DNA of 32,000 nucleotides, taken from positions 30,001 through 62,000 of the forward strand of contig JAFGBS010000033.1 in assembly GCA_016933055.1 (NCBI GenBank), in the 5' to 3' direction. A program made the position numbers and the translations under genes. Within the stretch, counting starts at the first letter, position 1. Each line of letters opens with the position of its first letter. The notes under the pieces are model-generated. The model did no database searches. It was not told the origin of the DNA and was given only the letters and a program-made list of their open reading frames with translations. Origin of the DNA: Promethearchaeota archaeon (lineage in GTDB: Archaea > Asgardarchaeota > Lokiarchaeia > Sigyniarchaeales > Promethearchaeaceae). Shown in pieces: positions 24,908 through 27,244 of this stretch.

Positions 24908-25867
24908 ATGGAAAAACAACTAAATCAACTTATTAAAAATTTTATTGATGCTATAGAAAATGTTGATATGATCGCACTTATTGATCGTGATGGTTTGGTT
25001 CTGATGTCTATGCTAAAAGAAACTGAAGATGCTATATTAGGTGCGATCACTGCAGCATTTGACATGTTTATAGAGCGATTGAAACAAGAATTCATGGGTT
25101 CCGAGTTTATTAACATAATGACACTGGGAAAACGAAAGTTCTTTTTCGCAAGTGTTGGAGATAATGCAATATTAACTGTAGTTGCAAATGAAAAAGGTAT
25201 CGAAAGTGAAATCCGAGTGTATAGTGAGTTAGCATTGGGGAGAGTAAACCGAATTCTGTCAGGTGAGGAAAACGTTTCTCTAGAAATCCCGGGTATCATA
25301 AAAATTATGAGTAAAATGAAAGTTTTTTCGCGATTTAAGGACGGAAAACTTCCAAAAGGGATCTTTACTATTAAAGTAATTTTATGTGGGGATTATCGTG
25401 TAGGAAAAACTTCTCTAATCCGACGCTTTGTAAACGACTCCTTCGAACAAAGCTATGTAGCTACCATCGGTGTTGATATATCTCGTAGAGAAATGCGGTT
25501 TGATGAGAACTGTACGTTGAATTTTCTTATCTGGGATATCGGGGGACAGTTGCATCAAATGGCTCCTTACCGGAAGCGATTTTATAATGGTGCTCATGCA
25601 GCATTTTTAATATTTGATAAAACACGTAGAGACAGTTTTCTAAATATTAAAAAATGGACAGAAGATATTGATCGTCGCAATCCTCAAGGTATTCCAAAAA
25701 TTCTGATCGGAAACAAAACTGACTTAACTTTCGATATCGAAGTGACGGATGAGGAAATTATGGAATTATCGGAAAAATTGGGATTTGAATACATAGAAAC
25801 ATCGGCAAAAACCGGAGAGAATGTCGATTTAGCATTCAAATATATTGCTCTTCAATCTATTTCCTAA
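24908..25867 (+). CDS. Roadblock/LC7 domain fused to a Rab-like small GTPase
   Basis: N-terminal roadblock pattern (IALIDRDGLVL...AITAA). C-terminal G1 GDYRVGKTS, G2 TIG, G3 WDIGGQ, G4 NKTD and G5 TSAK. Confidence 0.92.
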   Translation: MEKQLNQLIKNFIDAIENVDMIALIDRDGLVLMSMLKETEDAILGAITAAFDMFIERLKQEFMGSEFINIMTLGKRKFFFASVGDNAILTVVANEKGIESEIRVYSELALGRVNRILSGEENVSLEIPGIIKIMSKMKVFSRFKDGKLPKGIFTIKVILCGDYRVGKTSLIRRFVNDSFEQSYVATIGVDISRREMRFDENCTLNFLIWDIGGQLHQMAPYRKRFYNGAHAAFLIFDKTRRDSFLNIKKWTEDIDRRNPQGIPKILIGNKTDLTFDIEVTDEEIMELSEKLGFEYIETSAKTGENVDLAFKYIALQSIS

Positions 25868-25870
25868 AAT

Positions 25871-26287
25871 CTACGAAAAGGTTTCTAATATTTCTTCAAT
25901 TGCGGTCCGTATTTTTTCGGTTGGTTGATGTAACAATGATTGGATCAATACCTCTTTATCATTGGAACAAATGCTCCCAAAATAACCAAATAGTTTCTCT
26001 AAGTAACGTTTTCTTTCTATTAGGTCATTAGGAATGTTTAAAAGTATTGATTTAATAAATTGAACTGTGTTTTTCGGTTCGTTAGGAATTAAAGTTTCAG
26101 CTTTTTGAATTTGGTATTCACTTTTTATTATGTCATATTTTTGAAGACGCTTGAAATAATCCCTATTTATCATTGTAATTCTATTGGGGATCGAATCTTT
26201 TGATATAAGTCGTAATAATGATAATATCTCGGACTCGATCTTTTTTATCTGCAACTCTATTTCTTCCAAGTCAAAATTTTCTAGCAT
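25871..26287 (-). CDS. Hypothetical alpha-helical protein
   Basis: 138-aa ORF with an ATG start, convergent on the GTPase gene with a 3-bp gap. Confidence 0.6.
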   Translation of the reverse strand: MLENFDLEEIELQIKKIESEILSLLRLISKDSIPNRITMINRDYFKRLQKYDIIKSEYQIQKAETLIPNEPKNTVQFIKSILLNIPNDLIERKRYLEKLFGYFGSICSNDKEVLIQSLLHQPTEKIRTAIEEILETFS

Positions 26288-26402: not shown

Positions 26403-27008
26403 TTAATATACTAATTCAAAATCATAGATTTGCTGGATTAAGTTTTTCAAAGAGTTTTCAAGATGCTCTACTGAACGGATTCCTAAACAAATAATTTTGG
26501 AATTCGAGAATAATAAGAACGCACCACCTTCTTCCAAATCTCGGATGATGGCTGCGGGAAACTGCTCAGGTTCATATATGCAATTCATTAAAGTAAGGCA
26601 AGCCATTTCTAAATTAATTCTTTTATTTAAATTAGTCATAGCAACAAAATTTTGGATGGATATTGCGAATTCAGTATATTTAATCCGTGCTTTAGTAAGT
26701 ACTTTCTCGATTTGCTGCTTTATCTCAGGAATTTGGTCTTCACGTTTCAATCCAGTTATAATCATTTTCCCATTTTTGAAAATTATTACAGACACATCAC
26801 CAACTTTAAATAACACACATGGGAAACGATTGAGAGATCGAACATCAATGACGGCTTCAATTTTTGTAAAATCAATATCTTCTTGCTTATTTTCTAATTC
26901 GAGAATACCAAGCGCTACAATATTAGTAATGCGATAAGTAAACTCAATTTCCTGAGAAAGCTCGGAATTTTCCACGTAAAGTGTTGTATATTCGGAATAT
27001 TGCTCCAT
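26403..27008 (-). CDS. tbp: Divergent TATA-box-binding protein (TBP) paralog
   Basis: Two TBP repeats: ITNIVA...RFP...IIFKNGKMIITG and IQNFVA...YEPEQFPA...LLFSNSKIICLG. The start is likely the ATG at 27008 (ORF track uses TTG at 27023). Confidence 0.88.
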   Translation of the reverse strand: MEQYSEYTTLYVENSELSQEIEFTYRITNIVALGILELENKQEDIDFTKIEAVIDVRSLNRFPCVLFKVGDVSVIIFKNGKMIITGLKREDQIPEIKQQIEKVLTKARIKYTEFAISIQNFVAMTNLNKRINLEMACLTLMNCIYEPEQFPAAIIRDLEEGGAFLLFSNSKIICLGIRSVEHLENSLKNLIQQIYDFELVY

Positions 27009-27244
27009 TATTTTACCCTTCAATTTGGTTTAAGTCAATTCATCTAATTTTGTCGATAATTTGAAACACATAATTTTACTCTTATTACTTATTATGAGCA
27101 TTTTTGTTAGAAACATTACAATGCTTTTTCTGATAACATTTTAAAGTCCATTGATCTTCTATTTCTGTTGATCTTATAAAGATCTTTGAACACCATTTAT
27201 TTCGATATTTTTTTATATTGGATATTATCTGGATAATACATTTT

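Follow-up and report, generated by a model that had tools for sequence, protein, structure and literature searches.

A divergent TATA-binding protein paralogue with a rebuilt N-terminal lobe in a family of Loki-type Asgard archaea

Does the gene located at positions 26403..27008 (minus strand) of a Lokiarchaeia DNA stretch code for the ordinary TATA-binding protein (TBP) of its host, or for a paralogue with a task of its own? The window, that is the whole stretch of 32,000 nucleotides that was analysed, corresponds to contig 10:30001-62000 of a 3.76-Mb Promethearchaeota/Lokiarchaeia MAG assembly, 91% complete. A first, sequence-only reading had described the product as an asymmetric and specialised TBP paralogue on the basis of a series of short motifs. 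All these motifs were recovered at the indicated places of the protein, NIVA (29-32), RSLNR (57-61), RFP (61-63), IIF (75-77) and ITG (84-86) in the first repeat and NFVA (120-123), YEPEQ (145-149), QFP (149-151), LLF (165-167) and CLG (174-176) in the second. The open reading frame, referred to below as the D-type TBP gene, codes for 201 residues; it starts at an ATG common to the orthologues and is closed by a TAA stop codon (26403-26405). A TTG situated five codons upstream of this ATG is probably not used as start. The GC content of the gene is 32.5%, that of the window being 35%. The upstream regions of two genomes, the source genome and its congener, were compared by eye, and a candidate promoter element of the D-type TBP gene, AAATTATCGACAAAA (27045..27065, minus strand), was noticed about 40-55 nt upstream of the start codon; it is also present in the congener.

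Pfam analysis of the product revealed two PF00352 repeats (87.7 bits for a cut-off of 22.9), and in the genome search repeat 2 reached 62.5 bits and repeat 1 29.7 bits. The ten NCBIfam archaeal TBP models (PRK00394 equivalogs and subfamilies) all matched the protein, at 56-109 bits for cut-offs of 181-347; the best score was 108.8 bits vs a cut-off of 270, and 10/10 models remained far under their cut-off. From the Pfam repeats and the NCBIfam scores it therefore follows that the gene codes for a TBP, but not for a standard one. The AF2 model, computed with the orthologue alignment as input, has a pLDDT of 91.3 and a pTM of 0.81. When it was submitted to Foldseek, only TBPs were returned, the archaeal ones first: 1mp9, 1ais, 2z8u and 1pcz were superimposed with TM values of 0.72-0.86 and rmsd of 2.0-3.0, 1mp9, 1ais and 1pcz having E values of 1e-17 to 1e-14 and TM values of 0.75-0.86. 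The TBP of 1AIS, which is a TBP-TFB-DNA complex, is among these best structural matches. The fold is thus predicted with confidence to be the TBP saddle, made of two helix-grip lobes. In the N-terminal extension of the model, a short strand (residues 8-12) is proposed with moderate confidence only (pLDDT 64-73).

The search of the source genome highlighted four genes for two-repeat TBPs and five TFB genes, so that the D-type TBP is not the sole TBP of its host. TBP-A (contig 15) is canonical-looking, with repeats of 96 and 95 bits; TBP-B (contig 10:20451-20957) and TBP-C (contig 17) are intermediate paralogues, and the D-type TBP is both the weakest Pfam match and the most divergent of the four. 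It does not match the standard TBP of the lineage, as judged by the NCBIfam scores given above and by the presence of a canonical copy on another contig. These data support the proposal of a specialised TBP paralogue. Among the TFB types of the genome, three occur order-wide. For the fourth (contig 6:29154-30128, L070), the congener alone yielded a strong orthologue (78%) at E<=1e-95, but so strict a cut-off does not allow its distribution to be judged; this TFB may be fast-evolving or lineage-specific and may be a candidate partner of an alternative TBP. No TFB paralogue sharing the distribution of the D-type TBP was identified among the four TFB types profiled; the fifth type is canonical-looking.

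The residues of the D-type TBP were compared with those of ordinary TBPs in an alignment of 40 D-type sequences with 48 canonical Asgard TBPs. Three parts, all encoded on the minus strand, can be distinguished. The N-terminal extension (residues 1-23, 26940..27008) is found in all D-type orthologues and is absent from the canonical copy. Repeat 1, or N-lobe (residues 24-112, 26673..26939), keeps N29, F62, F77 and T85; its stirrup, RSLNRFPC, is basic and four residues shorter. Repeat 2, or C-lobe (residues 113-201, 26406..26672), keeps N120, F150 and F167 together with an invariant YEPEQFPAAI, and carries a Leu (Leu175) at the place of the Thr and SNSK at the place of SSGK. The four phenylalanines and both asparagines that had been described as retained are indeed invariant in the 32-40 orthologues compared, as are T85, E146 and E148. 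In TBPs, the central minor-groove contacts are made by the Asn of each S1 and the Thr of each S4. Three of these four contacts (N29, N120 and T85) are kept in the D-type TBP and the fourth, the repeat-2 Thr, is replaced: Leu175 occurs in every D-type sequence, in agreement with the CLG motif first noticed, vs Thr in 98% of the canonical clade. This is the sole replacement among the classical DNA-contact residues, and the concave face retains its hydrophobic and basic residues as well. In all, the same residue is present in D-type and canonical TBPs at N29, V31, F62, P63, F77, G80, K81, T85, G86, Q119, N120, V122, Y145, E146, P147, E148, F150, P151, I154, L165, F167 and G176.

The differences are as regular as the identities. 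Fifteen positions are conserved within each group and differ between them (canonical to D-type): L47F, Y59L, G64C, R68K, L75I, T79N, V83I, S124M, D132N, G152A, L153A, K161G, G170S, V173I and T175L. In 32-40 orthologues whose identity ranges from 46 to 91%, the motifs LNRFPC, YEPEQFPAAI, FSNSKII.LG and IQN.V.M show no variation or a conservation of 90% or more, and other residues are conserved in the canonical Asgard clade at the same columns. Because they are conserved in so many orthologues while the canonical clade has fixed other residues, the D-specific states are not due to chance. The replacement of an acidic first stirrup by a basic one (RSLNR, 57-61) was verified at the level of the clade, the median charge at the base of stirrup 1 being +2 in the D clade vs -2 in canonical TBPs. 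The Gly that follows FP has disappeared from both repeats (FPG to FPC at C64, and FPAA at A152), and the tip of stirrup 2 has changed from PK to GG. G170S, S124M, the N-terminal extension of about 23 residues and the shortening of stirrup 1 by four residues are further features, which, like the two Gly losses and the GG tip, the sequence-only reading had not listed. The acidic insertion that it reported does exist, as about three residues (N40-Q42) of repeat 1, but its sequence varies across the clade. As to the second stirrup, two C-lobe Glu, C.L3.2 and C.L3.4, contact TFB/TFIIB directly (PMC7221094). They correspond to E146 and E148 of the D-type TBP, which are 100% invariant inside YEPEQ, in good agreement with a retained TFB contact.

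The two repeats have also drifted apart. Their median identity is 26% in the D clade (BLOSUM62 score 48) vs 40% in canonical TBP-A (score 147), the values being 39% (score 105) for TBP-B and 34% (score 112) for TBP-C. From these median repeat identities, the asymmetry first suspected in a single protein is therefore a property of the entire D clade, in which it is fixed.

The reading that we prefer, and hold to be reasonably probable, is that the D-type TBP is a working alternative TBP that binds TATA-like DNA and TFB and whose changed N-lobe gives it another partner or promoter preference; it would probably act as a specialised transcription starter. The protein would sit on the minor groove of TATA-like DNA like an ordinary TBP, because its concave face is kept, bar one central Thr replaced by Leu, and TFB would probably be recruited via the unchanged acidic second stirrup. 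The rebuilt N-lobe, with its short basic stirrup, changed S1-H1 region and N-terminal extension, would, together with the altered tip of stirrup 2, lead the protein to different partners, shift its preference among TFBs or restrict it to part of the promoters. The binding of TATA may be weakened or altered, since with Thr175Leu only three of the four central minor-groove H-bond donors remain, and DNA bending could be modified by the loss of the Gly that follow FP and of that in SSGK; due to the PK to GG change at the tip of stirrup 2, TFB docking may differ too.

The same pattern could be read in an opposite sense: the D-type TBP would be a competitor or decoy that retains its TFB-binding stirrup, its DNA face or the two together, but does not initiate and whose dead-end complexes lower or redirect transcription. 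A TFB-contact motif that is 100% invariant while the central DNA-contact Thr and several structural Gly are replaced would fit such a role, as would, judging from the pattern only, the rebuilding of the N-lobe and of the stirrup-2 tip. However, retention of the four Phe, of both Asn and of the basic and hydrophobic concave-face residues is what a working DNA binder would show, and no feature of the sequence points specifically to inhibition; we regard this alternative as unlikely.

The working alternative TBP that we favour can be compared with known proteins. Like the canonical archaeal TBPs of Pyrococcus woesei (1PCZ/1AIS/1D3U) and Sulfolobus acidocaldarius (1MP9), the D-type TBP has two repeats, a predicted saddle, the four Phe, both Asn and the repeat-1 Thr, and its YEPEQ stirrup is identical to that of P. 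woesei TBP in the alignment. Unlike them, to which it is about 30% identical, it has a basic stirrup 1 shortened by four residues, the repeat-2 Leu, two losses of the FP Gly, the GG tip and the N-terminal extension. TRF2/TLF has lost the intercalating Phe and is not known to bind TATA, and the D-type TBP, which retains these Phe, differs from it in this respect. It resembles eukaryotic TBP/TRF (PMC7221094, PMC3142196) by an N-lobe that has diverged and become more basic, by a C-lobe that keeps the TFB/TFIIB-binding Glu and by its coexistence, as a paralogue, with a general TBP. The resemblance to eukaryotic TBP asymmetry should be taken as an analogy only. Among the genomes searched, only one Loki-type family has the clade, so that the likeness would be convergent at most.

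The distribution of the D-type TBP was followed at three scales. The source GTDB family includes 13 other genomes, 12 of which possess clear orthologues (E 1e-54 to 1e-113, 48-89% identity); elsewhere in the order, the best matches stay at cross-paralogue level (~1e-29). In sister-family genomes, open frames of 420-435 aa match part of TBP weakly (e.g. G025:C100:5649-5936 and G040:C133:24487-24921). Only five of 251 sampled Asgard genomes reach E 1e-35, all belonging to the source family and including the source genome, and none of the 246 genomes outside this family does so. The homologues bear the database names Promethearchaeota or Lokiarchaeia. The family that possesses the D-type TBP contains both cultured Loki-type archaea, and exact look-up gave named orthologues in Lokiarchaeum ossiferum B-35 (NEF87_004172), Promethearchaeum syntrophicum MK-D1 (DSAG12_01749) and Harpocratesius repetitus, all three labelled 'hypothetical protein' by NCBI. 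One family member, G002, is an 80% complete MAG in which the helical-protein, Zn-ribbon and GDPD genes described below are present and the TBP is absent from the locus; no TBP was found anywhere in this 80% complete genome. At the widest scale, 1.84 billion cluster representatives were searched with a profile, which yielded 21 proteins at E<=1e-30. Those standing above the general TBP continuum were a D-type representative of full length, two fragments of the D type and a single distant relative, P0048 (1e-43). P0048 is 35% identical to the D-type TBP and shares the signatures MNRFPS, YEPEQFPAAI and FSNSKIICLG. The D-type TBP may be older or wider than a single family. This distant D-type TBP, P0048/P0243, stems from a metagenome lineage in Logan assemblies, P0243 being encoded on a 108-kb contig, and has the short basic stirrup 1, FPAA, SNSK and the Thr to Leu replacement; no relative was found in 400 Asgard species genomes, nor in genome or metagenome contig collections.

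In a maximum-likelihood tree of 85 sequences, the D clade is monophyletic (100*), with a very long stem and an inner branching by genus, which fits vertical inheritance. In the free tree it joins divergent C-like paralogues of the sister family f3, with long-branch warnings, and an alternative tree that joins it to the canonical TBPs of the order is unrejected and slightly better (p-AU 0.66); the deeper placement of the clade is, on these alignments, unreliable. These tree tests are compatible with a duplication that took place locally and was followed by rapid change. The D-type TBP would date, by origin or by fixation, from the ancestor of a single Loki-type Asgard family, with vertical inheritance ever since.

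A quite different origin, from a virus or mobile element or as a direct relative of eukaryotic TBP/TRF, could be imagined, as the contrast between a basic and an acidic stirrup recalls eukaryotic TBP. However, the gene lies in a stable chromosomal neighbourhood, its tree follows the genera, its GC is near that of the window, and the tree joining it to the canonical TBPs of the order is the unrejected one just mentioned. In a phmmer search against the PDB, archaeal TBPs were matched by the D-type TBP at 82-104 bits vs at most 68 bits for eukaryotic ones; by these sequence scores it is closer to archaeal than to eukaryotic TBPs. We judge such an origin very improbable.

The selection acting on the gene was assessed between the two species of the genus, the source organism and its congener. 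As dS was saturated (pS ~0.72), only dN values were compared: they amount to 0.035 for A, 0.075 for D and 0.127 for both B and C. The lower dN thus places the D-type TBP under tighter constraint than TBP-B and TBP-C, and its reading frame is intact in all orthologues. Judged from these comparisons, the D-type TBP is evolving under purifying selection. The idea of a redundant or decaying duplicate devoid of a function of its own could invoke the scores far under the curated TBP cut-offs and the very long stem branch; it does not agree with the intact frames, with clade-specific residues that stay invariant over 46-91% identity, with a dN under that of its two sister paralogues or with a fold predicted with confidence, and we give it hardly any credit.

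The neighbourhood of the gene bears on the possible partners of the protein. Downstream of the D-type TBP gene, after a gap of 115 nt, the window contains a gene for a 138-aa all-helical protein (25871..26287, minus strand), as characterised by synteny, homology alignments and AF2. A homologue of 134-153 aa stands beside the D-type TBP in 12/12 family loci examined, directly downstream and on the same strand in 11 of them, the gaps being 21-122 nt in the five loci read. In MK-D1, the D-type TBP is inverted relative to its neighbours, so that the helical-protein gene is on the opposite strand. At this MK-D1 locus (L013, chromosome 1295596-1299144), a 140-aa gene separates the two, unlike in the other family members. 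The helical proteins are homologous, yet only 17-23% identical outside the genus. The AF2 model (pLDDT 74) consists of a helical hairpin and a four-helix bundle with a disordered linker between them; no Pfam match was obtained for the 138-aa protein, and Foldseek against the PDB gave nothing at E<=0.001 with this model. Three assignments of the helical protein were tried and set aside or weakened. A relationship with the CtsR C-terminal bundle rested on a best Z of 6.6 (VIA wide search), which lies within the noise for helical models. An acidic/aromatic TBP-binding segment in the linker was inconsistent across orthologues. An exclusive partnership with the D-type TBP is weakened by homologues in the sister families f2 and f3, which do not have the D-type TBP; in the f3 loci read, a distinct 127-aa gene fills the slot between the helical-protein and Zn-ribbon genes. 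The two genes have therefore stayed adjacent in the family, yet the helical protein is not tied exclusively to the D-type TBP.

The next gene codes, in most genera, for a 557-630-aa protein devoid of Pfam domains; in L. ossiferum this is followed by a cupin gene. Upstream of the D-type TBP there is often a gene for a small RPB9/TFS-type Zn-ribbon protein, followed by a glycerophosphodiesterase gene. In the source genome this ancestral block is split, the Zn-ribbon and phosphodiesterase genes and TBP-B being located 36 kb away on the same contig. The Zn-ribbon protein (81-108 aa) comprises only an RPB9/TFS-type N-terminal zinc ribbon (PF02150, just over the cut-off) and a Lys-rich tail; its gene is found at contig 10:18735-18980 (minus strand; L111 4735-4980), L109 6304-6582 and L112 5397-5660, adjoins the glycerophosphodiesterase gene order-wide and lies directly upstream of the D-type TBP in several genera. 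A transcription-related role of this protein could be envisaged. TBP-B is directly downstream of the genes for a 443-450-aa Gtr1/RagA-like GTPase and a small Ras-like GTPase in the source genome (L111 6404-9163, contig 10) and in L. ossiferum (L109 36-2815), and the same GTPase pair, without TBP-B, is present near the D-type TBP in H. repetitus (L110 6790-8732). A 553-aa GvpD/KaiC-like P-loop ATPase gene (contig 10:23176-24837, minus strand; L111 9176-10837) adjoins this GTPase/TBP-B block. On the plus strand of the window, convergent with the D-type TBP operon, positions 24908-25867 code for a 319-aa fusion of an N-terminal Roadblock/LC7 domain with a Ras/Rab-like GTPase (Pfam Ras 7e-40, Robl_LC7 7e-07).

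The conserved pair of genes leads to a further alternative, in which the D-type TBP would be one half of a dedicated module, its basic N-lobe docking the presumably co-transcribed 138-aa helical protein in the manner of the eukaryotic TBP N-lobe with TFIIA, NC2, Mot1 and TAF1. The two genes are adjacent in all 12 family loci examined and ordered on one strand in 11, the charge of the N-lobe is inverted at the base of the stirrup, and there is a eukaryotic precedent, as the basic N-lobe cluster of eukaryotic TBP is a regulator-binding face (PMC7221094). Against it, the helical family also exists in sister families without D-type TBP, where the 127-aa gene occupies the slot in the loci read, the linker is not consistently acidic/aromatic, and no fold match was obtained. 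We consider such a module doubtful. With the same reserve, one may imagine that the TBP paralogue of this cultured-Asgard family has independently evolved a eukaryote-like division of labour, with the C-lobe for TFB and the N-lobe for a dedicated cofactor, most plausibly the 138-aa protein; this too appears improbable on present evidence.

The preferred reading, a specialised but working TBP, can be set beside the archaea in which several TBPs are known. Halobacterium possesses six TBPs and seven TFBs, and Methanosarcina several TBPs and one TFB (PMC5501381). The source genome resembles them in having several TBPs and TFBs (here 4 and 5) and in retaining the extra copy lineage-wide (12/13 family genomes), and the idea of transcription partitioned among TBPs and TFBs would be common to all. 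Unlike them, it belongs to an Asgard lineage, with an independent origin of the copies, and the D-type TBP exceeds its sister paralogues by far in divergence and asymmetry. No paper on Asgard TBP paralogues or mentioning the D-type locus tags was found in the literature searched.

Extra TBPs are known in few archaea, where their roles are mostly unclear, and the literature searched yielded no description of one in Asgard archaea. The D-type TBP, conserved in both cultured Loki-type species yet labelled 'hypothetical protein', flags an annotation gap in the Asgard basal transcription machinery. It also presents a clean split, the DNA- and TFB-contact residues being almost all kept and the N-lobe rebuilt. 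Because of this split and of the cultured hosts, the D-type TBP is a tractable case for how TBP surfaces gain partners, a process thought to underlie eukaryotic TBP asymmetry. If the reading of an N-lobe devoted to a cofactor were true, the family would possess an archaeal counterpart of TBP-TFIIA/NC2/TAF-type regulation.
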